From an uncultured candidate division Zixibacteria bacterium (GTDB taxonomy: Bacteria > Zixibacteria > MSB-5A5 > UBA10806 > 4484-95): a stretch of 64,000 nucleotides of DNA. The notes under the pieces were generated by a model. The model saw only the letters and a program-made list of their open reading frames with translations, was not told the DNA's origin and did not search any database. A program made the translations under genes and the position numbers. The DNA is taken from positions 233,676 through 297,675 of the forward strand of contig CAXXKA010000004.1 in assembly GCA_963668625.2 (NCBI GenBank). The letters are read 5' to 3'. Each line of letters opens with the position of its first letter. The stretch's first letter is position 1. This document shows positions 22,819 to 43,691 of the stretch, one piece after another.

Positions 22819-24978
22819 ATGAACAAACTCGCAACCTACATACTTATAATTATTTGCTTATCGGTATCAGTAGTATCAGCACAGATAATGAGTTTTAACA
22901 GCGCCAGTGTTTTTACCGGGTCAATCAACGATATAGAGATTCGCGACAATTACGCTTATTGTCTGGGGACCTCGGCGTTCGAGGTGTTCGATATCTCGAC
23001 TCCCGGGGAGTTCAAACTCGTTGCCGGGTGGCCGATAGCCGGCGGCACTAATAGATTAGTTCTGAAAGATAACCTGGCTTTTATAACCACATTCGGAGCG
23101 GGACTGGTTGTATTGGATATTTCGACACTCCCGATAACCTGTGAATTTGCCTGCCTGGACATCGAGGATGATGTAAGTGATATTTACTTCGATGGTGATA
23201 CACTGTATCTGGCCGGTCATGATGGCAACCTGCATTTTATCGACATCAGCAATCTACAGGATCCGGTTTTGATAAGCAGTTTCGAAATGCCCAATTCGCT
23301 CGAATCGATCACCGGCTATGCCGGCTACCTGTATGTCGCTACCCACGCCAATGGCGTCTATGTAATCGATATCTCGGACTGTGAAAATCCTGAAATTATC
23401 GATACACTGGATGAACAGTGGGAGTTAAAGGATGCAACGATACATAACGATCATTTGTATATCAACTCGTGGTTATACGATGATATGGTAATTTACGGCA
23501 AAATCAACATCTACGATATCGAGCAGCCTGGCAGCCCGAACCTTATTTCCACGATCGAGAGGGACAGCGAATTCAGTGATATCTATTTCGAAAACGACAT
23601 ACTATATACGGCCAATGATTACTATGGATTAGTCGCCTACGATATCAGCCAACCGACAAACCCGGTCTCGATTATAAACCAGGCTTTCGAACTTGACTTC
23701 GACTACGTATCCGCTACCAGTGTTTGTGCCCTGGAAGGAACCTCGGTGATTTGCCTCGGCAGTTATCTGGTCAGAGCCGATATTTCTAATCCCGATAATA
23801 CTTTCATACTGGATAAGTATTCGATTCCCAGAGAATCATTTAGTGTAGAATGCGAAGGGAATCTGGCTTATATCGGTTTGCAGCTCGGATTCCAGGTTTT
23901 GGATTACACCAATCCCGATTTCCCGGTGATGCGAGGCGGAATCAATGACCATCTGGTAGTCAATGGCATCAAGGATATGTGCCATAATGGTGGTTACGTG
24001 TATTTAGCGTCAGCCTCATGTGGTAGAATCAGCATTATAGATGTTAGCAATCCCGATTCGGTTTATTGTGCAGGTTATTACTCCGATGGTCTTTTTTCGG
24101 TAAGGGCTGTTGATGTTCGCGATACGCTTTTATTCGCTATCATGACCACCGGTTTACCGTTTCGAATCATTAATGTCGCCGACCCCGCGAACCCGGTAGT
24201 ACTGGGCGGCTGCGAAACCAACAATGGCATTGTTTATGATATGGCGCTTGATGGGAATTATGTTTATGCATTATGCCATACGGGCGTATCTATCATAAAC
24301 ATCGAAGACCTGGCTAATCCGGAGCTTATAGCATCGTACAATTCACAGAGCGGGTTTGTACTAAAAACGATTGCCGTTAGAGAAAACTACGCTTTCATGG
24401 CCTCCGACACGGGTTATTTCGAGATAGTAAACACGGAAAATCCAAATGATTTCCGTCGCGAAAGCTATTGCGAAATTCCGGAGAATGCCTCCGATATCTC
24501 TATCGTGAACAACTTCGCTCTAATCGCCACTGATGGAGTTGCAGTGGTGGATATCGGCGACCTTACCGGACCATCCCTGACCAATCAATGGGATTCACCG
24601 GGAAGATCCCATAACCTGGATTTTCATGGGAATTATATTTTCTTAGCCGATTGCTTTTCTACGATAATAATCGAATATACGACTGCGGCGATCGGGGATG
24701 AATCGGCGCTGCCGGATCAAATCGCGCTATCGCAAAACTACCCCAATCCGTTCAATGCCCGAACAAGTATCAGTTTCACACTGTCCGAAAAATCAAAAGT
24801 AAAACTTGATATATATGACATACTTGGCCGCAAACTTCAAACTCTACATAATGGCATCCAGAATGCCGGGGAGCACACATTGAACTGGAATGCCGAAAAC
24901 CTCTCCTCAGGTATTTATTTCTATAAATTAACTACCGGAGAATTCGAACAGACCAGGAAAATGATTCTTCTAAAATAG
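22819..24978 (+). CDS. Secreted LVIVD-repeat protein with T9SS type A-like CTD
   Basis: Signal peptide MNKLATYILIIICLSVSVVSAQ, LVIVD repeats, and CTD SQNYPNPFNA...RKMILLK. Alternative start at 22807. Confidence 0.9.
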   Translation: MNKLATYILIIICLSVSVVSAQIMSFNSASVFTGSINDIEIRDNYAYCLGTSAFEVFDISTPGEFKLVAGWPIAGGTNRLVLKDNLAFITTFGAGLVVLDISTLPITCEFACLDIEDDVSDIYFDGDTLYLAGHDGNLHFIDISNLQDPVLISSFEMPNSLESITGYAGYLYVATHANGVYVIDISDCENPEIIDTLDEQWELKDATIHNDHLYINSWLYDDMVIYGKINIYDIEQPGSPNLISTIERDSEFSDIYFENDILYTANDYYGLVAYDISQPTNPVSIINQAFELDFDYVSATSVCALEGTSVICLGSYLVRADISNPDNTFILDKYSIPRESFSVECEGNLAYIGLQLGFQVLDYTNPDFPVMRGGINDHLVVNGIKDMCHNGGYVYLASASCGRISIIDVSNPDSVYCAGYYSDGLFSVRAVDVRDTLLFAIMTTGLPFRIINVADPANPVVLGGCETNNGIVYDMALDGNYVYALCHTGVSIINIEDLANPELIASYNSQSGFVLKTIAVRENYAFMASDTGYFEIVNTENPNDFRRESYCEIPENASDISIVNNFALIATDGVAVVDIGDLTGPSLTNQWDSPGRSHNLDFHGNYIFLADCFSTIIIEYTTAAIGDESALPDQIALSQNYPNPFNARTSISFTLSEKSKVKLDIYDILGRKLQTLHNGIQNAGEHTLNWNAENLSSGIYFYKLTTGEFEQTRKMILLK

Positions 24979-25566: not shown

Positions 25567-27705
25567 ATGAAAAAAACACTGATAACCGGCGGTTTTATTT
25601 TATGTGTTTTGATAGCCGCCACTTTAACATCTACGGCCCGGCAATTGGAGTACGTGAACTCTATTTACTGGACCGATATCAATGATCTAAAACTGCGAGG
25701 TGATTACGCCTACTGCTGTTTCGGTTCGGGATTGGTCATTTATGATATGACAACCCTGTCTTTTCCATTAATAAGCAGTAGAATTTTTATTCAGGGAAGC
25801 AATAAACATATCGAATTACATGAGAATTACGCTTACATGTTCGGCAAAGATGATATGCTGCGTGTCATTGATATCACCTCACCAATCAATCCTCGGATAG
25901 TTGGCGAATTACCACTTAACTGCGAGGTGTATAATATCCGTATTAGAGGTAACTACATTTTCGCGGCCGCCGGTGAACTCGGTCTCGCAATCATCGATAT
26001 TTCCGATCCCGAGCAACCGGAAGTTTTAACCTTATATGATACCGACGGGATCACGGGAGCAGTCGATATTCAGGATGATTACGTTTTTATAGCGGAAAAA
26101 CAAACTCAGCCATCCATGCCATCATTCCAGGTGCTGGATATCACCGATATCCTGAATCCTTACGCGATAGGCGCAATCACGGATCAAATCATATCGGCAT
26201 GCGATCTGATAGTTGAAGGAGATATCGCCTACCTCGCCGACCAAACAGCCGGTTTTACCACGATTAAATTAACGAATTTATCACAGCCTGAAGTATTAGC
26301 TCAGATATCAAGCTCTTCCTCACCTCATAATCTTCATTTTAATGATCCCTACGTTTTCATGGATAAAGATAACGAATGGCTGCAGGTATACGATGTCACG
26401 GATCCCGCATCGCCCCAGTTAGCCGGTGATTTTCTGCCCGAGAAACCAATTATGGACTTCGATTTGACCGGCTCGCAGCTTTTCACGGCCGGAGCGTTCG
26501 AGGGCATCTCCATACTGGACATTTACGATGTCGACTATATATTTCAGCTAACGGAGATCGACAGAAGAGGAGCGATAACCTCCTCATTTATGGTGGATGA
26601 TGTATTATATGTCGGCGAATCTCAACAGGGATTGATGGTTCACGATCTCAGCGATCAAGGCAACCCGAATCAAATCGGATTCTCTTTTACCCCCTACCAG
26701 CACTCATTTACGGAGCTGAATGAAAATAGCATTTTCCTTCTGCAGGATGATCAGATAGGTGAAATCTACCTGCCGGATCCCACCACGCCGCTTGATCCGA
26801 TGTATTACTATTTTCAACAAAATTACAGTGATGCCTGTATTAATCTTCCTTATCTATTCCTCACCAAACCAGAGGGTGGCCTGGATATCTACCTTCGCCA
26901 CAATTTCGTGGCTCTGCAGTACCTCAGAAGTTACGAGTGGACATCCCAAACCGGAAATGTTGAAATCGAGAACGGGCGTGCTTATATCGCTCAGTATCCT
27001 AATATCTGCATTTTCGATATATCGGATCCAACCGATTCAGTCCTTCTCGGTTCCTATGAACCGGCAAATCAAGTGCAGAAACTGTGGGTGAAAGATAGTT
27101 ATGTCTATTCCTCGGGGCATGATGCTACCAGTAATCAAGTATCGATATACGATTGCGCCGATCCGGAAAATCCTGTCTTTGTCGATGATATCGCTTTCGA
27201 GGGATCAGTGCTCGATATAACATTTCATGAGAACCTGGCGATTTTCGCGGTTTTGGAGGCTGGGATAATTATTTACGATTGCGCTAATCCCGAAAATCCG
27301 ATACCGGTTGATCAATACCGCACACCTGGTATCATTAACGAAATCGCCATTTTCAATGACTATTTGTACTTAGCCGATAACAGCTCCCTGGTTATTCTCC
27401 GTTTCAGCCCGACAGGTATCGAGAATATCGATAACTTACCGGAGGAATACCGGCTATCGCAAAACTACCCAAATCCGTTTAATGCCGCCACCACGATAAG
27501 CTATAGTCTACCGGAACAGTCGAAAATATGTATTGAGGTTTTCGATATACTTGGCAGAAAAGTGCAAACGCTATTCGAGGGCGAACAGCCGGCAGGTATT
27601 CATTCGCTTACATGGAATGCAGATAGTTTCTCCTCCGGTATCTATTTCTATAAGTTATCTGCCGCAGATATTATACGTACCGAGAAGATGTTGTTAATTA
27701 AGTAG
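25567..27705 (+). CDS. Secreted LVIVD-repeat protein with T9SS type A-like CTD
   Basis: RBS AGGAGG, signal peptide, LVIVD repeats and CTD. Clearly paralogous to 20328..22478 (YINSINW vs YVNSIYW; LKLTPTGIE vs LRFSPTGIE). Confidence 0.9.
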   Translation: MKKTLITGGFILCVLIAATLTSTARQLEYVNSIYWTDINDLKLRGDYAYCCFGSGLVIYDMTTLSFPLISSRIFIQGSNKHIELHENYAYMFGKDDMLRVIDITSPINPRIVGELPLNCEVYNIRIRGNYIFAAAGELGLAIIDISDPEQPEVLTLYDTDGITGAVDIQDDYVFIAEKQTQPSMPSFQVLDITDILNPYAIGAITDQIISACDLIVEGDIAYLADQTAGFTTIKLTNLSQPEVLAQISSSSSPHNLHFNDPYVFMDKDNEWLQVYDVTDPASPQLAGDFLPEKPIMDFDLTGSQLFTAGAFEGISILDIYDVDYIFQLTEIDRRGAITSSFMVDDVLYVGESQQGLMVHDLSDQGNPNQIGFSFTPYQHSFTELNENSIFLLQDDQIGEIYLPDPTTPLDPMYYYFQQNYSDACINLPYLFLTKPEGGLDIYLRHNFVALQYLRSYEWTSQTGNVEIENGRAYIAQYPNICIFDISDPTDSVLLGSYEPANQVQKLWVKDSYVYSSGHDATSNQVSIYDCADPENPVFVDDIAFEGSVLDITFHENLAIFAVLEAGIIIYDCANPENPIPVDQYRTPGIINEIAIFNDYLYLADNSSLVILRFSPTGIENIDNLPEEYRLSQNYPNPFNAATTISYSLPEQSKICIEVFDILGRKVQTLFEGEQPAGIHSLTWNADSFSSGIYFYKLSAADIIRTEKMLLIK

Positions 27706-27714
27706 ATAAGTCAG

Positions 27715-27772
27715 AAAGTTCGCTAAATCCATACTTAACTATATAACATTTATGGATTTAGCTGAACTTTTT
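27715..27772 (+). terminator. Hairpin/terminator after the LVIVD cluster
   Basis: AAGTT-CGCTAAATCCATA...TATGGATTTAGC-TGAACTTTTT. Confidence 0.55.
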
Positions 27773-27773
27773 C

Positions 27774-27801
27774 TTGTCAAAAACAGTTTATTTCTTATAA
27801 T
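27774..27801 (+). promoter_or_regulatory. Sigma70-like promoter for the 27839 gene
   Basis: TTGTCA-N16-TATAAT. Confidence 0.5.
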
Positions 27802-27838
27802 AAGGTCAGAAATAACAACTGTTTAAACTGGAGCAAAA

Positions 27839-28828
27839 ATGCGTAAACTACTAATCCCGATTTTACTCATTGTGACCGCTATGGTATCCCCTGCCATGGC
27901 TTATCGAAGTCTTCAGGAGGTTTTCGAAAACGCCATGCCGGGATATGGTTATGATCGCTATATAGAGCTCGACCCCGAGATCGAATACGAGGGCGATCTA
28001 CAAATCAACGCTAATGAAAGTATCTGCATTAAAGGCAACGGTGCGCTCGTATATGGCCGTCCTTATATGATGTCTGTTTATGTGGTGTTCGCTCAACTGG
28101 ATATTTCGGATTGCGTGTTAGTCGACGGTGGTTTCGGGATATATTACGGTTTGGACTCTTACGGCACTATCAGCAACAATACTATCATTAATGCCAGCGA
28201 GCAGGGAATAGCTACGGTCAATTTCGATGAGGATCGAGGACTGGTAATTTATAACAATATCATTACCGGCTCTAACTATGGCTTTTTATGCGTCGAGGAG
28301 CATCACCCCTCGTACCTGGGCTATAACACTGTTTGGAACACAGGCACGTATCGCTACGCCGAACAATGCCTCGACTGAGGTGGCACTATCTTGCCAATCG
28401 ACCCTGGTCAGGGTGATCAAGATGAAAATCCCATGTTTGTAGATATTGAGAATTTCGATTTCAGACTTCAGGCCGGTTCCCCCTGCATAGGTACGGGCCG
28501 GGATGGAGGCGATAGGGGCGCGCTGCAGTTCGCTACCGGTATAGATGATATCATCACACTCCCTTCGGCGCTTGCGCTCGATAGCAACTACCCTAACCCG
28601 TTTAACGCCGCCACCACTATCAGCTACGATCTGCCGGAGCAATCCGAGGTCAGCCTGGTGATATACGACTTACTGGGCCGCGAGGTGCAGACGCTGGTGA
28701 ACGATACCGAACCGGCAGGTAAACACACTATCACCTGGCATGCGGATAAAGTCACCTCGGGTATATATTTCTACAGGCTAACAACCGGTAAGGATGTGCT
28801 TACCCAACGCATGACATTGATAAAATAA
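27839..28828 (+). CDS. Secreted right-handed beta-helix protein with T9SS-type CTD; in-frame TGA, probable selenocysteine (CxxU)
   Basis: The two track ORFs share one frame; the only interruption is TGA 28376..28378 in EQC-L-D-*-GGTILPIDPG. The joined 329-aa product has a signal peptide, PbH1-like repeats, a PMFVD..DFRLQAGSPCIG cap and a CTD. Confidence 0.75.
28388..28423 (+). promoter_or_regulatory. Putative bacterial SECIS element
   Basis: ATCTTG/CAAGAT outer stem, ATC/GAT, bulged G, ACCCT-GGTC-AGGGT apical stem-loop. The loop starts after 27 nt downstream of the TGA. Confidence 0.65.
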
Positions 28829-28852
28829 GAATAATCCATTAGCTGATTATCA

Positions 28853-28883
28853 AGGCGCGTAAATTATCTTACGCGCTTTTTTA
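28853..28883 (+). terminator. Rho-independent terminator
   Basis: GCGCGTAA-attatc-TTACGCGC followed by TTTTTT. Confidence 0.8.
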
Positions 28884-28971
28884 TTTTGTGACTGGCAGAT
28901 ATGCTCAGGCTGTCTCAAAAGGTAGATCGACGCCGTGGTTGGGGTACGATCCCCATGCTCCGACTCGTATG

Positions 28972-29231
28972 CCTGGTTCCCTGGTTTCCAGACGCTTCTT
29001 GGGAACCTTCTAAAGTCATGTAAAATCCGCATTCTGCCGGCAAACAAGCCACGTTGCGAAGTAGCGGGGTTGTTGAAAAAATCTATTTCACGCGTCGCTG
29101 GGCGGACGAAGTCCTTTGTTCATCCTTTCCCGGCGACATCCCGCATGTAACAGGTGTCAGGAAAAGATTCCTGACACCGCAACTAAGTCATGTAAAATCC
29201 GCATTCTGCCGGCAAACAAACCACGTTGCGA
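28972..29231 (+). repeat. Second intergenic repeat family (two local copies)
   Basis: AAGTCATGTAAAATCCGCATTCTGCCGGCAAACAA(G/A)CCACGTTGCGA near 29012 and 29185. Hairpin GGTGTCAGGAA-aaga-TTCCTGACACC lies between. A third copy is at 43862..43970. Confidence 0.8.
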
Positions 29232-29408
29232 TATTATTTATATAATTGTGCACGGGCACACGGGGACGCCTGCTGCTCTCAAATACAGAAAATCAATCTC
29301 GGAGCACAGGTCAAGACTACTCAAGACCTGATAACCAAGGCCTGATTTACCCTCTGTTTTCACAACAATCCTATTGACATCTCCGCCCCACACAATTAAC
29401 ATATTCTC

Positions 29409-30170
29409 ATGCTAGATTTTACCCAGACAATGTATGATAATCTCTGCCGGGCAATCAACGACTCGGGCTATCGCACGGCGATAATGGGTGACTATTTCAA
29501 AAGTGATAGCTCCGATATTCCCCGCATGTTCCTCCGTCATGATGTTGACCGTGATCCGATGCTTGCGCTCGAGATGGCAAAAATCGAACGAGATCATAAA
29601 CAGGTATCCACCTATTTCTTCCGGGTGGTCGAAAATGTTTTCAAGCCGGACATTATCGAGAAAATCTCTGCAATGGGGCATGAGATCGGCTATCATTACG
29701 AATGTCTCGATAAGACCGGCGGTGATTACTCGAATGCCTATCAAACCGCTATCGGGGATTTGAAGAAACTGCGCGAGGTTGCCCCGATTGTCTCCATGGC
29801 CATGCATGGCAATCCGCTGACCAAATGGGATAACCGCGATCTATGGGGCAAATACGATTACAAAGACCTGGGTATCGAAGTGGCTGCTTATTTGAATATC
29901 GACTATAAAAAAATCCGTTATTTTTCGGATACCGGACGCACCTGGGAGGAAAACCGTGGCAATATCTACGATTTCGTTGGCAATCAGCCCTCCCATGCTC
30001 TGAAAACTACGCCTGATTTGATCGAATATATCAGCGAACATAAACAGGATACCTGCATACTCATCCACCCCAACCGATGGACCGACCAGACATTCAAATG
30101 GCTGTACAACTGGGCATTCGACACGGCCGCCAACACCGCTAAAGCGATTATCAAAACAATCAGAAAGTAG
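29409..30170 (+). CDS. Polysaccharide deacetylase-like (NodB-homology fold) protein
   Basis: FLRHDVD, STYFFR, GHEIGYHYE, MAMHGNP, YFSDTGR and ILIHPNRW. Confidence 0.7.
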   Translation: MLDFTQTMYDNLCRAINDSGYRTAIMGDYFKSDSSDIPRMFLRHDVDRDPMLALEMAKIERDHKQVSTYFFRVVENVFKPDIIEKISAMGHEIGYHYECLDKTGGDYSNAYQTAIGDLKKLREVAPIVSMAMHGNPLTKWDNRDLWGKYDYKDLGIEVAAYLNIDYKKIRYFSDTGRTWEENRGNIYDFVGNQPSHALKTTPDLIEYISEHKQDTCILIHPNRWTDQTFKWLYNWAFDTAANTAKAIIKTIRK

Positions 30171-39597: not shown

Positions 39598-39919
39598 GAA
39601 TAACCTTTCGCCATTTAGGTTTATAAAGATAGTATATCTGGTTGATCATTATATATATTTAAACCTTTCACGCCTAAAATATATTAGTAAATTATAATAA
39701 ATTCAAGACAATACATATTCCGTTAATCACGAAAAAAACTCATGAAGTAAAATTATTTTGAAGAAACGATGTCATTACCGAATTAGTATGAATTTCCAGG
39801 GCATTAATCTGATTTAAGATTAACTACTTACATCCGATAGCCTATTGAGCGGTTATTATTGCAAGTATTGCAAAAAACCGTTGTGTTAATACAAGCGGAA
39901 TATTATAATGGGCAATACT

Positions 39920-40006
39920 GGAGAGGTGGCCGAGCGGCTGAAGGCAGCTGCCTGCTAAGCAGTTAACGGGGAAACTCGTTCCAGGGTTCGAATCCCTGCC
40001 TCTCCG
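39920..40006 (+). tRNA. tRNA-Ser(GCT)
   Basis: GGAGAGGTGGCCGAGCGGCTGAAGGCAGCTGCCTGCTAAGCAGTTAACGGGGAAACTCGTTCCAGGGTTCGAATCCCTGCCTCTCCG; long variable arm. Confidence 0.96.
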
Positions 40007-40115
40007 GATAATTTCAATTGCTTAAAACGCAATCACTTATATTTTCCGCGCAAAACTTATTAATGGTTTATCATCTATAGTTTGTAATCGAATTTAGCCA
40101 GAATTACACAGTCTA

Positions 40116-43100
40116 TTATCTATTTTTGTATTCAGTCTGTCTGCTATTTGATATCTCCTCAATCTCCTGGCAATTAGGCCAATTAAACGGCATTTCCCCT
40201 GGTAAATCGGATGATTCAGGCCAGTTAGTCGGATGGAACGGGCAGTACGTCAGGTCGTTCAGGTTGCGGAAATAGTTAACAAGGTAGGTGACATCCGAAC
40301 CGATTACGGCGCAATCACCGTTAACATCCGCCGGCCCGAAAAAGCTGTCGAGGAAACACGGTTCGGCTTTATTTCTGAAATAATTCACCAGGTAGGATAC
40401 ATCCGCTCCAATAACCAGAGGCGGCCAATCACCGACCCACATATTAATATCACCGGGAAAATAGTTAGTGTGAATAAAGGCGTTGTAAAACGAAACCGCC
40501 CCGATATCTATTCGAGTGCCGTCAGCATCAATGTATAGAGTATCGTTGGGGTGCCCCATATCGATACAGGGTGATTTCAGCGAATCGGTATATGGAAATC
40601 CCACCCACATCAAGCTGAAATCACCTGCTGATGGTTCGATAAACATCGGGTCATCCGATATATTATTAGCTCCACCCGATGTATAACCATTCTGAATATC
40701 GCAATAGTCGACAAAGGGAGCAACCATGGAAGAATCGACATGTATCTGGCTGCTATAATTGGCGTCGTTATTCCAAATGATGCTATTTAGCAACAATGGG
40801 CTGCAGTTGTTCAAATATACCCCACCGCCGGTATTGGCTTGATTTGCATAAAACGTATTGCTTAGCAACGCCATACTGTCGGTGCAACCTTCGATATAAA
40901 CACCGCCGCCATAATTAAATGCCTCGTTAAGCCAGAAAATATTTCTTTCTATACGGGCATCGGAACCATTTTCGATACTGACCGCGCCGCCGTTCGATTC
41001 GCTAAGATTGTTCGTGAATAAGTTGAAAATAACCTGCGGAGAACTTCCGTCTGCCAGGACTGCTCCCGGGGTATTTTCGCCATAGTTATTCTCGAATATA
41101 TTGTAGCTGATCACCACTCCATCCCCGGCATTATCCAGCCGAATCGGAGTATCATTGGAGTATTCTATTAATGATAAATGCACCAAGCTGCTTTCCGCAT
41201 TATTGAAACATATACTCCCCCAGCCCCTACTCGTATCGAATGAGGTATATCGCACCCGACTAAAAGTCGTATCATCATCCATGATAACCCATTTGCCTTC
41301 GCTCAGCAACAAACCGGTGTTTTCCACGATAATATCATACATACCCATGAAATTAAGTGTCACACCCTGCTCGATAATCAGCGTATCGCCATCGCTAACG
41401 ATAATATCACCGGTAACCTTAAATGTATCCGGTGGAAATAGCTCTGTTTTGCCTGTAATATCTCCGAAAATCCTTTGCATCCCCTGTGGAAAATGCCGGG
41501 CTCCTATATCCGTGCGGGTGGTGTCCGGATCTTTGAAAATAGTAGTATCCGGATTGCCGCGTTCGATACATGGCGAGCCCAGCCCGAGATTGAAATCGCC
41601 GTTATCACGATCGACAAAGAGCGGATCATCACTAATACATGAATCGGCATCCTGAATATCGTTTAAGGAGCCCTGGCTCAGGTCACAGTAATCGTAGGTC
41701 ACGTTATTACCGGCGAAATACAGGTGACGGGATTGGTAATCGATAGCCAGATTTTCCCAGAATATACAGTTCTGAATATCAAAATCAGAAACCGCATTCG
41801 CGTATATCGCTCCGCCCGAATTCTCCGATTTATTTCGATAAAAAGTATTATTAGTAAATAGCGTTCTTTCTATTGGCGCCAGCGAGTCACAGTAAATCGC
41901 GCCGCCATAGCTATTGGAATGATTAAGCCAGAACACATTTCGCTTCAAATTCAAATCGGTGATTGCCGATAGCGATATCGCTCCGCCTTCCGCACTGGCT
42001 GAATCAGCTTTGAACGTATTACTGAAAAGATCAAGAGAACCGCCGATCGCGTTAACGGCCGCGCCTCGAACCGCCTCGTTATCGACGAATACGGAACTAC
42101 TGCAAATTAAAGAACCATTATAGGAGGCAACAGCGCCATAGTTATTTTTTTCAAAATAACATGTATCTAAAACTCCCGTGGAATTAGTCAGTGTTATCGC
42201 AGCCGAGGAGTCGGCGCCTAAAAATCGCGTAAATGTAAAATAACTGGGATCGGAATTCACGAAGTTAATCCCCTTATAGCCGATACCAGGATCATTCCGT
42301 CCGAAAGTAATTATAGACTCAGCAGTGCCGGGAGCGTTGATATACGATCCGGAGCAAACGACAATATCATATAACGATATTACCCCGGCATCGTAACAAT
42401 GTTTGAATAGCACCTCAACACCCGGCTCGATATATAAACCATCACCGCTTGATACGCTACAAGGCGACATCACGTAATAAGGACTGTATAATTCTTGAAG
42501 AGTATCCAGTTGGATCCTACCGACCAGGTTGAAAATATGATGATACGGATAGGCGCCCATATCGGCGTAACTACTATCGGCATCCTTGGGCAGTAGAGGA
42601 TCACCGGTATTTATGCAGGGCGATTTCCCCTCGACATCATCCTGTATTCCACTCCATGAAAGACTCAAATCTATTACATGAACTCTTGCAGTATCATTAA
42701 ATATTGGATACTCATTAATACAGGAATAATCCAGATAGCCAAGATTTTCATTAACATCGGAGTATTTAACAATCGGATTATCATTTCCCGGCTCGACGTA
42801 TATTTCAGGGTTGCTTAAACTTGCCATATCATCCCACAAAATACAGCTATTTATGGTTGGAAGAGCTTCTGTCCGGGTAGATATCGCTCCGCCAAAACGA
42901 GCGCTATTTTGAAAAAATGTGCAGTTTTCGATAGCTATAGTCGTAGTATCCGATAAGTCTAATCCTCCACCTTTTTCATTTGCTACATTAAAATCGAAAA
43001 CGTTATTTTTGAAAATGCCTTCTTGAACATGTTGTAGTAGAGCTCCCCCTCCGTTCGTACCAATGGCTTGATTGTTGTAAAAATAGTTGCCGGTTATATT

Positions 43101-43691
43101 GATAATACCATCCTTGCAAAACAATCCACCTGCTGCAAAAGCGATATTACCGTTAAAATTGCAGCCTCTGACAGTTATATCAGAGTTTTGGCTGTAAATT
43201 CCTCCGCCAGATTCTATAAATCCACAGTTATTTTCCTCTAAAATACAATTAATTAGAGTTAGATCGGTAGAATCTATATATACCGCCTGATTATTCACTT
43301 TTCGGATTCTCGCTTTATATAAAATAGATGAGCTATCCGAATGATCAAAGAGCAGCCCGCTCCAGGTAGTTTCTTGTGACGGTGACTCGAACGATACTTC
43401 GTTTGTCGCTGTATCACCTGATGAACTTACATTAACTATTAATGTCGCATTCCGATTGATAGTAAACCGATAGTCACCGTGAAATATAACTCTAATGGTA
43501 TCGGAATCGGCATAGATTCTCAAAGTACTATCTTCAGGAATATTAATATTACCGGTTATATTATATTCGGAATATCGAGAATCCCACATGCCGTACACAT
43601 CACCGACAATGGTAGTATCAGCCGCCATCGCATTGATATTAAATATCAATACGAATACAAATATAATCCTATAAAACATGCGCATAAACAC
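40116..43691 (-). CDS. Large secreted protein: three beta-helix modules plus C-terminal dockerin-like domain
   Basis: Signal peptide; repeated F..N.A..GGAI motifs; three SPCI..G.P...D.D..R/ADIGA-type caps; C-terminal GDINM...ADVNGDCAVIGSDVTYLVNYFR. Confidence 0.85.
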   Translation of the reverse strand: MFMRMFYRIIFVFVLIFNINAMAADTTIVGDVYGMWDSRYSEYNITGNINIPEDSTLRIYADSDTIRVIFHGDYRFTINRNATLIVNVSSSGDTATNEVSFESPSQETTWSGLLFDHSDSSSILYKARIRKVNNQAVYIDSTDLTLINCILEENNCGFIESGGGIYSQNSDITVRGCNFNGNIAFAAGGLFCKDGIINITGNYFYNNQAIGTNGGGALLQHVQEGIFKNNVFDFNVANEKGGGLDLSDTTTIAIENCTFFQNSARFGGAISTRTEALPTINSCILWDDMASLSNPEIYVEPGNDNPIVKYSDVNENLGYLDYSCINEYPIFNDTARVHVIDLSLSWSGIQDDVEGKSPCINTGDPLLPKDADSSYADMGAYPYHHIFNLVGRIQLDTLQELYSPYYVMSPCSVSSGDGLYIEPGVEVLFKHCYDAGVISLYDIVVCSGSYINAPGTAESIITFGRNDPGIGYKGINFVNSDPSYFTFTRFLGADSSAAITLTNSTGVLDTCYFEKNNYGAVASYNGSLICSSSVFVDNEAVRGAAVNAIGGSLDLFSNTFKADSASAEGGAISLSAITDLNLKRNVFWLNHSNSYGGAIYCDSLAPIERTLFTNNTFYRNKSENSGGAIYANAVSDFDIQNCIFWENLAIDYQSRHLYFAGNNVTYDYCDLSQGSLNDIQDADSCISDDPLFVDRDNGDFNLGLGSPCIERGNPDTTIFKDPDTTRTDIGARHFPQGMQRIFGDITGKTELFPPDTFKVTGDIIVSDGDTLIIEQGVTLNFMGMYDIIVENTGLLLSEGKWVIMDDDTTFSRVRYTSFDTSRGWGSICFNNAESSLVHLSLIEYSNDTPIRLDNAGDGVVISYNIFENNYGENTPGAVLADGSSPQVIFNLFTNNLSESNGGAVSIENGSDARIERNIFWLNEAFNYGGGVYIEGCTDSMALLSNTFYANQANTGGGVYLNNCSPLLLNSIIWNNDANYSSQIHVDSSMVAPFVDYCDIQNGYTSGGANNISDDPMFIEPSAGDFSLMWVGFPYTDSLKSPCIDMGHPNDTLYIDADGTRIDIGAVSFYNAFIHTNYFPGDINMWVGDWPPLVIGADVSYLVNYFRNKAEPCFLDSFFGPADVNGDCAVIGSDVTYLVNYFRNLNDLTYCPFHPTNWPESSDLPGEMPFNWPNCQEIEEISNSRQTEYKNR

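Follow-up and report, generated by a model that had tools for sequence, protein, structure and literature searches.

A candidate family of exported beta-helix selenoproteins in a class of Zixibacteria-like bacteria

We analysed a 64,000-nt stretch of DNA from an uncultured candidate division Zixibacteria bacterium (the window, to which all plain positions refer), and in it the forward-strand segment 27839..28828. A reading made earlier from the letters of the window (the sequence-only reading) had proposed that selenocysteine (Sec) is inserted here to give an exported beta-helix selenoprotein. This proposal is supported by a conserved TGA codon, by homologs with Cys in its place, by a hairpin behind it and by Sec machinery in the genome. 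On this evidence the segment is probably (about 0.85) one gene for an exported beta-helix protein, in which the UGA at 28376-28378 would be decoded as residue Sec180 by SelB and tRNA-Sec. Below, G000 is the window's own genome, and the other G, L and P numbers are genomes, loci and proteins that were compared.

Translation of 27839..28828 gave a single 329-codon frame whose sole internal stop is this TGA, in the context C177-L-D-TGA-G-G, and so bore out the earlier view that two annotated open reading frames (ORFs) are one frame interrupted at this codon only. Under translation table 11 the frame is cut into two ORFs, one of 179 aa (27839..28378) and one of 145 aa with its start at TTG 28391, and both halves are stored in public collections as two unnamed proteins. 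A scan of 27600..29000 found no terminator-like site between the two halves. Flanked by a promoter-like site upstream and a terminator-like site downstream, 27839..28828 appears to be one transcription unit. Its features are listed here.

27774..27801, +: sigma-70-like promoter, TTGTCA-16-TATAAT, 11 of 12 consensus positions; a consensus match only, preceding the ATG by about 38 nt
27830..27833, +: Shine-Dalgarno-like GGAG, 5 nt before the ATG; read from the sequence
27839..28828, +: predicted whole selenoprotein precursor gene, 329 codons plus TAA, Sec at codon 180; 26 homologs of like architecture
27839..27901, +: putative signal peptide, aa 1-21, with a cleavage-type site between A-M-A and Y; assigned by eye, pattern conserved in the homolog alignment
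27902..28375, +: predicted right-handed parallel beta-helix body, aa 22-179; PF13229, AlphaFold2 model and structural matches
28367..28369, +: Cys177 codon TGC, partner in C-x-x-U; Cys at -3 in 21 of 26 homologs
28376..28378, +: TGA, putatively read as Sec, residue 180; same column in 26 of 26, Cys homologs, Sec machinery in the genome
28379..28531, +: predicted C-terminal helix cap, aa 181-231, G-G..PGxG..DPxF..DFxL..SPC; conserved columns, high-confidence model
28387..28424, +: candidate stem-loop of the bacterial Sec insertion sequence (bSECIS) type; upper stem ACCCU/AGGGU (28401-28405 with 28410-28414), loop GGUC 28406-28409
28589..28810, +: type A C-terminal sorting domain (CTD) of the type IX secretion system (T9SS), aa 251-324; PF18962, TIGR04183
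28852..28887, +: intrinsic-terminator-like hairpin and T run; the sole terminator-like site within 27600..29000

The TGA codon and its family of genes

To collect homologs, 61 genomes from the same class were searched in six frames, and 285 genomes from the phylum were searched with a profile. The class search gave 26 full-length homologs, including the family-specific N-terminal region, in 15 of the 61 genomes, and each has exactly one internal stop, a TGA. This TGA falls at one alignment column in all 26 extracted genes, whose identity to the window protein is 33-53%. Stop-free matches all start at query residue 64 or beyond and are ordinary beta-helix/CTD paralogs. The profile search returned the same 26 genes in 15 of the 285 genomes, together with a sixteenth genome that has one partial non-TGA match. 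The TGA genes occur in a single class, and there only in four families (f1, 6/9 and in addition the window's genome; f2, 1/14; f3, 3/3; f4, 4/5). Copy number is 1-4 per genome, the second copy of the window's genome lying at G000:C1:92026-93027, and close homologs carry source names of candidate division Zixibacteria. Judged from the alignment, the TGA column is conserved and not the result of damage; its recurrence in 26 of 26 homologs exceeds chance. The spacing of the neighbouring Cys is C-x-x-U in 21 of the genes, C-x-U in two and C-U in two, and one (L038) has none.

The same break is apparent in metagenomic data. Among the best 150 representatives of a library of 1.84 billion proteins, 21 are ORFs of about 176-251 aa that end at profile position 176-179, and from this end position they probably stop at the TGA of the same column. 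Full-length homologs without a TGA were also available: 16 from this library and the protein P0002, aligned with MAFFT. Eight of these 17, all metagenomic, have Cys at the TGA column, in motifs such as CPNC, DCGC, C-SC and CGC, and one has Thr. P0002 (..FCPNCGGG..) shares 71% identity over 312 residues with the TGA gene of G004 (..FCPSUGGG..), and one Cys cluster includes a protein that its source labels a candidate division TA06 beta-helix protein. Homologs with TGA or Cys at this column and with conservation on both sides, which the sequence-only reading had named as support for itself, were therefore found in both forms.

The hairpin after the TGA and the selenocysteine machinery

All 26 genes have a G+C-rich hairpin downstream of the TGA, with an apical loop that begins GGU (AGU in two). 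In 24 of them the hairpin is written on the cap codons P-G/S-x-G, at a UGA-to-loop spacing of 27-36 nt. Of the 24 genes that have Gly in the loop, 23 encode it by GGT, the genome-wide usage of GGT being 0.33, while 44 homologous or look-alike non-TGA xGxG cap sites have GGC (16), GGT (13), GGA (12) or GGG (3). The minimum free energy (MFE) of 36 nt was -9.9 +/- 2.3 kcal/mol in the family versus -5.7 +/- 2.6 kcal/mol at the non-Sec cap sites (Mann-Whitney p 7e-8, a value overstated by kinship). Covariation was scored on an alignment of 24 genes, from which L024 and L026 were left out, their hairpin sitting elsewhere. The stem pair formed by two wobble positions is CG in eight genes, UA in eight, UG in four and AU in one, and is unpaired in three; the covariation score, 0.180, lay above all 500 shuffles and all slid registers. 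In L024 and L026 (genomes G007 and G003) the cap motif is altered (PGEHE), and a hairpin GGCCC-GGUUC-GGGCC is found 17 nt after the UGA on the codons P-A-R-F-G. These two genes keep a hairpin on different amino acids, which argues for selection on the RNA itself.

Passages of a 2026 review of the prokaryotic selenoproteome give the constraints on a bSECIS as a loop of 3-9 nt, an upper stem of 4-16 bp, a G in the first two loop positions, a distance of 16-37 nt from the UGA and an MFE <= -7.5 kcal/mol (PMC13188914). We applied these constraints with two in-house implementations, not with bSECISearch. The window gene passed (loop GGUC, 5-bp upper stem, spacing 27 nt, -12.8 kcal/mol), as did 15 of the 26 genes by each implementation and 18 in their union. 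The background was 17 and 18 of 415 ordinary TGA stops and 17 and 36 of 827 random TGAs (2-4%).

Other genes of the genome offer a comparison. Its selD (..SCAGU AAKF..) carries GAUCCAG-GUU-CUGGAUC 33 nt after its UGA, and each of two HdrA-like genes (..PTMDCSIU..; G000:C6:271424 and C6:276591) has a GGUC loop 27 nt after its UGA; the best NCBIfam match of the HdrA-like gene is NF040770, at 1093.9 bits just below the cut-off of 1100. The family hairpin resembles the hairpins of these SelD and HdrA-like genes, and the HdrA-like genes have the same loop and spacing.

The genome is 95.9% complete. It encodes a tRNA-Sec (68 bits; called SeC by ARAGORN, with anticodon tca) as well as SelA, SelB and SelD, and the check for selA, selB, selC and selD that had been suggested from the sequence thus found all four. 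Of the 61 class genomes 60 have SelA, the remaining one being 52% complete, and co-occurrence of the family with Sec machinery is for this reason uninformative. TGA closes 261 of 1191 long open frames of the genome, and among its 46 tRNAs only tRNA-Sec has a tca anticodon, tRNA-Trp having cca; a change of genetic code is ruled out by the closing of these frames and by the identity of the sole tca tRNA. No formate dehydrogenase alpha subunit (FdhA, TIGR01553) was found in the genome, and selenoprotein families such as this one may therefore help to maintain the Sec trait in the lineage.

Three further observations concern these genes. In G000:C1:154251-158454, selD (with its own Sec TGA), selA and selB stand in a row. 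A second SelD homolog, without a TGA, lies at G000:C8:1138152-1139072 within a 739-aa open frame and may be a fusion. A sub-threshold match to the tRNA-Sec model at 39919-40007 (+) of the window, on contig C4, was rejected, being a tRNA-Ser (gct).

The decoding that we propose is of the ordinary kind. SelB-GTP-Sec-tRNA would bind the GGU-loop hairpin as the ribosome arrives at the UGA, and Sec180 would be inserted. The directing stem-loop would start 8 nt past the UGA, with its GGUC loop 27 nt past the UGA and within the codons of P-G-x-G.

Points against the assignment and other readings of the TGA

Several points weigh against a Sec residue in an exported protein. The support for Sec insertion, export and function is computational throughout, and the sequencing runs listed for the stretch include no RNA run. 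The sequences compared are relatives, and the statistical contrasts overstate their independence. Between 8 and 11 of the 26 genes fail the energy or stem thresholds for a canonical bSECIS. The hairpin overlaps the protein motif PGxG, whose codons supply two C-G pairs in any case, and the non-Sec paralog L047 reaches -9.8 kcal/mol on PGTG codons, though with a GGA loop codon. The 70-nt fold after the window TGA is no stabler than shuffled sequences (z = -0.40; 60 of 200 fold as well); this single-gene score being insignificant, the argument for the hairpin is drawn from the comparison of many genes and not from energy alone. No Rfam SECIS family was matched at E <= 1 in 27600..29500, a result that does not weigh against function because bacterial SECIS elements are diverse. 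The signal peptide was assigned by eye. Neither Foldseek against the PDB nor the generic list of beta-helix structures gave a specific match pointing to function. L038 has no Cys near the Sec, and a variable Cys spacing (CxxU, CxU, CU) is unusual for a thioredoxin-type redox motif. Finally, eight of the 17 full-length non-TGA homologs are distant relatives of about 700 aa (about 27-30% identical) whose Trp stands either at the column or no more than two residues away.

These Trp relatives bear on a reading in which the UGA is read through without Sec machinery, by near-cognate tRNA-Trp or by leakiness of release factor 2 (RF2), so that Trp or another standard residue stands at position 180. 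MAFFT sets the Trp of all eight on the column, TGG is one base from TGA, and the window's own downstream fold is, as noted, thermodynamically unexceptional. However, hhalign (P0170) sets Gly on the column and Trp two residues later, and since the two programs disagree the Trp correspondence is uncertain. Nor do the Trp relatives have the partner Cys, and they belong to a separate subfamily. In none of the 26 family genes does TGG stand at the TGA column, though a sense codon would be more efficient, and the closest non-TGA homologs, P0002 with its 71% identity to a TGA gene among them, have Cys and not Trp. The fixed GGT, the wobble covariation and the relocated hairpin of L024 and L026 are constraints on the RNA that a leaky stop need not have. 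Among the 46 tRNAs no suppressor was found, the anticodon of tRNA-Trp being cca. We regard Sec-independent read-through as very unlikely. The sequence-only reading had stated that Trp or variable residues at this position in homologs would speak against Sec; TGA in 26 of 26 genes and Cys in eight homologs point the other way, and the eight distant relatives with Trp at or near the column touch that statement in part.

It is highly unlikely that the TGA is a true stop, with the 179-aa beta-helix as sole product and the downstream part a relic, or with the gene as a whole a pseudogene. Annotation pipelines do call two ORFs, and TGA is a normal stop in this genome, but none of the 26 genes has a further stop in the downstream 150 codons. 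By codon position, pairwise divergence has a similar pattern on the two sides of the TGA, with 0.45/0.38/0.64 upstream, 0.43/0.36/0.64 downstream and 0.38/0.31/0.58 in the first 55 downstream columns. Residues G181, P189, G190, G192, D197, P198, F200, D202, S214, P215 and G220 are invariant or nearly so, the cap thus being conserved, and in frame behind it is a CTD that scores above its cut-offs. These computations show selection for coding both before and after the TGA. AlphaFold2 folds residues 1-231, on both sides of the TGA, into one beta-helix domain of stacked short strands with a mean predicted local distance difference test (pLDDT) score of 93.4. A relic would not persist across four families of the class.

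A further reading has termination at the UGA followed by reinitiation at TTG 28391 via a Shine-Dalgarno-like GAGGTGG, which would give two polypeptides. The motif GAGG arises from TGA-GGN in 26 of 26 genes, and in the window the TTG comes 8 nt after GAGGTGG. The earlier statement that the second half has no ribosome-binding site fails on this point, as TGA-GGT-GG itself forms such a site; it stands insofar as the start that follows is not conserved, a start codon at +4 or +5 being present in six of the 26 genes. The other 20 have no start at +4 or +5, and in six of these the first start is more than 50 codons downstream. Over the 26 genes the first in-frame start codon ranges from +4 to +79 codons past the TGA, and there is therefore no conserved restart. 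The codon after the TGA encodes Gly in every gene (GGC 12, GGG 6, GGT 4, GGA 4); Gly181, which lies before any such start, is conserved as an amino acid through four synonymous codons. Moreover, from the way in which T9SS cargo is exported, a C-terminal piece without a signal peptide would not be expected to reach the T9SS. We consider reinitiation extremely unlikely.

A sequencing or assembly error, which the sequence-only reading had allowed for, has no observation in its favour and a probability close to nil, as the TGA occurs in 25 other genes, from 14 other genomes and, for the second copy, from this one, and two independently built Logan contigs, both of one sample that is possibly the source, span the stretch without a difference and with the same TGA.

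Export, surroundings and comparison with known systems

The protein predicted from the read-through frame has the parts of an exported beta-helix on either side of Sec180. The sequence-only reading had assigned a signal peptide and a beta-helix to the first half and a cap and a secretion CTD to the second; beta-helix, cap and CTD are borne out, and the signal peptide is putative. The N-terminus is signal-peptide-like, MRKLLIPILLIVTAMVSPAMA being followed after the cleavage-type site by YRSLQ; the basic-hydrophobic-AxA pattern, seen by eye, is conserved in the homolog alignment, and a conserved head A-Y-Q-S-L-Q..G-Y-D-K-Y-I-x-L-D-P comes after it. The first half matches the Pfam families Beta_helix (PF13229, 27.0 bits against a cut-off of 25.9) and NosD (PF05048, 25.2 bits against 23.6). 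In the model about seven helix rungs, along which an Asn ladder runs (N114, N140, N163), are followed by a long strand ending at C177, and residues 178-180 are predicted to form a short helical turn bearing the Sec, after which come cap, linker and CTD. The second half contains the DPxF..DFxL..SPC cap and, in frame, a Por_Secre_tail CTD (aa 251-324) with scores of 41.7 bits to PF18962 (cut-off 27) and 48.1 bits to TIGR04183 (cut-off 23). A search of NCBIfam with the read-through protein returned the T9SS sorting domain and a sub-threshold parallel-beta-helix repeat, and nothing else.

Structural comparison of the model gave 108 chains at Z >= 8, the best being 6kfn alginate lyase (Z 14.6), 7dmk lyase of polysaccharide lyase family 6 (PL6; 14.4), 7xks pectate lyase (14.3) and NosD 7o0y (13.9). 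These are generic beta-helix proteins, and as the list declines smoothly to Z 10 it indicates the fold only. Foldseek against the PDB found no match at E <= 0.001, the best being the PL6 alginate lyase 7dmk at 2.6e-3.

The same cap had been reported three times in the ORF 40116..43691. Three SPCI sites are indeed found there, at aa 357, 706 and 1040, but the full DPxF..F.L..SPC is present only at the second and third. This ORF (40116-43691, -) encodes a 1191-aa beta-helix protein that has at its C-terminus two D-V-N-G-D..V-T-Y-L-V-N-Y-F-R repeats instead of a T9SS CTD; these repeats may be dockerin-like.

A route for export is present in the genome, which encodes PorU (NF033707, 681.8 bits against 420), SprA (TIGR04189, 570.8 bits against 200) and dozens of CTD-bearing ORFs. 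The precursor would consist, in order, of a signal peptide for the Sec translocon, a short right-handed beta-helix, a C-terminal cap, a linker and the T9SS type A sorting domain. It would cross the inner membrane by means of the signal peptide, the CTD would take the product through the T9SS, and after removal of the CTD the product would probably be attached to the cell surface. Cys177 and Sec180, on an exposed turn at the junction of helix and cap, would be the functional centre. For its chemistry we give about even odds to a redox-active selenenylsulfide, which we favour over a metal or chalcogen site. A soft-metal or chalcogen-binding site is the less probable choice, though the variable Cys spacing (CxxU, CxU, CU or none) seems to fit it better than a thioredoxin-type catalytic motif. 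Sec insertion itself, export, surface location and chemistry are what we infer from these data.

Directly upstream of the gene are three tandem genes for LVIVD-repeat beta-propellers with T9SS CTDs.

20265..22478, +: LVIVD-repeat beta-propeller gene with T9SS CTD
22807..24978, +: LVIVD-repeat beta-propeller gene with T9SS CTD
25567..27705, +: LVIVD-repeat beta-propeller gene with T9SS CTD

Such a gene with a CTD adjoins the family gene in 7 of 18 loci examined. An ORF for a Mutator-family transposase (PF00872, 249 bits) lies at 18854-20125 (+), directly upstream of the LVIVD array. Between the last LVIVD gene and the promoter-like site is a long inverted repeat (27711-27776), which was not called by the terminator scan and has two miRNA-like Rfam matches, both sub-threshold; it may be the terminator of the upstream LVIVD gene. 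Past the terminator-like site of the family gene, a 580-nt non-coding stretch that reaches to the next ORF contains two copies of a 47-nt direct repeat (29013-29059 and 29185-29231; 98% identical, 172 nt apart).

A scan of the genome for further selenoprotein genes required a Cys within three residues and a strict hairpin; it is crude and gives an incomplete selenoproteome. Another candidate T9SS selenoprotein, unrelated to the first and about 760 aa long, is encoded at G000:C8:764194-766470, with a tandem paralog at G000:C8:761652-763967 and homologs in L079 and L080. Its N-terminus is signal-peptide-like, and it contains a choice-of-anchor D domain as well as a Por_Secre_tail CTD. Its one in-frame TGA stands in ..LG(V/I)YC(V/R)(G/S)-U-G(I/E)TPPG.. 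(CxxU), at the same column in four of four full-length homologs, all of genus g1, with hairpins downstream. Two further genes have a ..G-U-G-C-T-T.. motif (G000:C6:194491 and C6:196659), the first of which gave a below-cut-off match to the OS_HP2 family.

The claim that no family of this kind has been described was compared with selenoprotein catalogues, and it held. Table 1 of the 2026 review lists 119 families and subfamilies, of which none is a beta-helix protein or T9SS cargo, and the passages of its text contain no such terms, nor NosD or signal peptide; known bacterial selenoproteins are described there as mostly cytoplasmic or periplasmic redox enzymes with thioredoxin-like folds (PMC13188914). 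The text passages of the deep-Sep and BSepDB papers contain no such family, and literature searches on beta-helix, type IX secretion or Zixibacteria selenoproteins gave nothing relevant among the listings. NCBIfam release 20 has many selenoprotein models, none of which matches the read-through protein. Within the catalogues checked we rate this as an undescribed selenoprotein family, whose decoding mechanism would be ordinary and whose fold and export route would be new for selenoproteins.

We think it somewhat likely that these are the first selenoproteins exported by the T9SS and displayed outside the cell. They would carry a selenol/thiol centre on a beta-helix scaffold, with as many as four copies in a genome, within one class of a Zixibacteria-like phylum, and often beside LVIVD cargo, with a SECIS built from ancestral P-G-x-G codons; together with the second CTD-bearing CxxU candidate they would point to surface selenium redox or metal(loid)/chalcogen chemistry. 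If this is true, selenocysteine is placed on the cell surface, and the selenoproteome gains a new fold and a new compartment. At least 26 reference-genome genes and about 21 metagenomic ORF clusters are now split or truncated at this place and named 'hypothetical protein'. The family would also be a natural case in which a SECIS hairpin and a conserved peptide motif share the same codons, useful for the study of dual RNA and protein constraints, and the Cys and Trp relatives are ready comparison proteins for the role of Sec.

Among known systems, the bSECIS-decoded CxxU/UxxC selenoproteins listed in Table 1 of the review (HdrA, SelW-like, AhpD-like; PMC13188914) are alike in having a UGA near a Cys, Cys homologs, a stem-loop with a loop G 16-37 nt past the UGA, and a dependence on SelA, SelB, SelD and tRNA-Sec. 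The present family differs from these entries in its beta-helix fold, signal peptide, T9SS domain and unfixed Cys-Sec spacing. The predicted extracytoplasmic selenoproteins in that source share a non-cytoplasmic location, and its TonB case is also CxxU; those entries are outer-membrane barrels or cytochromes, none of them T9SS cargo or a beta-helix, and there is no relationship at the level of NCBIfam. From the thioredoxin-fold CxxU oxidoreductases the family is set apart by an all-beta helix model and by the lack of any thioredoxin-like Pfam or NCBIfam match.

With respect to fold, the enzymes of PL1, PL6 and glycoside hydrolase (GH) families GH28 and GH87 are fold-level matches only, at 7-16% identity. 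NosD, the periplasmic beta-helix of NosDFY (PDB 7o0y), is alike in being an extracytoplasmic beta-helix (Z 13.9, root-mean-square deviation 3.2 over 155 residues), but its match is one row in a flat list of beta-helix proteins (Z 10-14.6). NosD is not known to be a selenoprotein or T9SS cargo. No ATP-binding cassette (ABC) transporter or nos genes were found near the window gene, whose neighbours are LVIVD propellers, a major facilitator superfamily (MFS) transporter and two-component genes; an ABC ATPase is next door in one of 17 other family loci (L019).

The nearest comparison is with the non-Sec beta-helix T9SS cargo of the same genomes (PF13229 with PF18962). These proteins have the same rungs, cap and CTD, with about 40% identity over residues ~100-329, but lack the N-terminal ~100 residues of the family, the TGA and the Cys; they show no fixation of GGT and have weaker hairpins. 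The closest of them, L047 and L048 (G001:C402 and G018:C156), read ..NYYEGYSG(D/Q)P.. where the selenoprotein family has ..YAxxCxxUGG...

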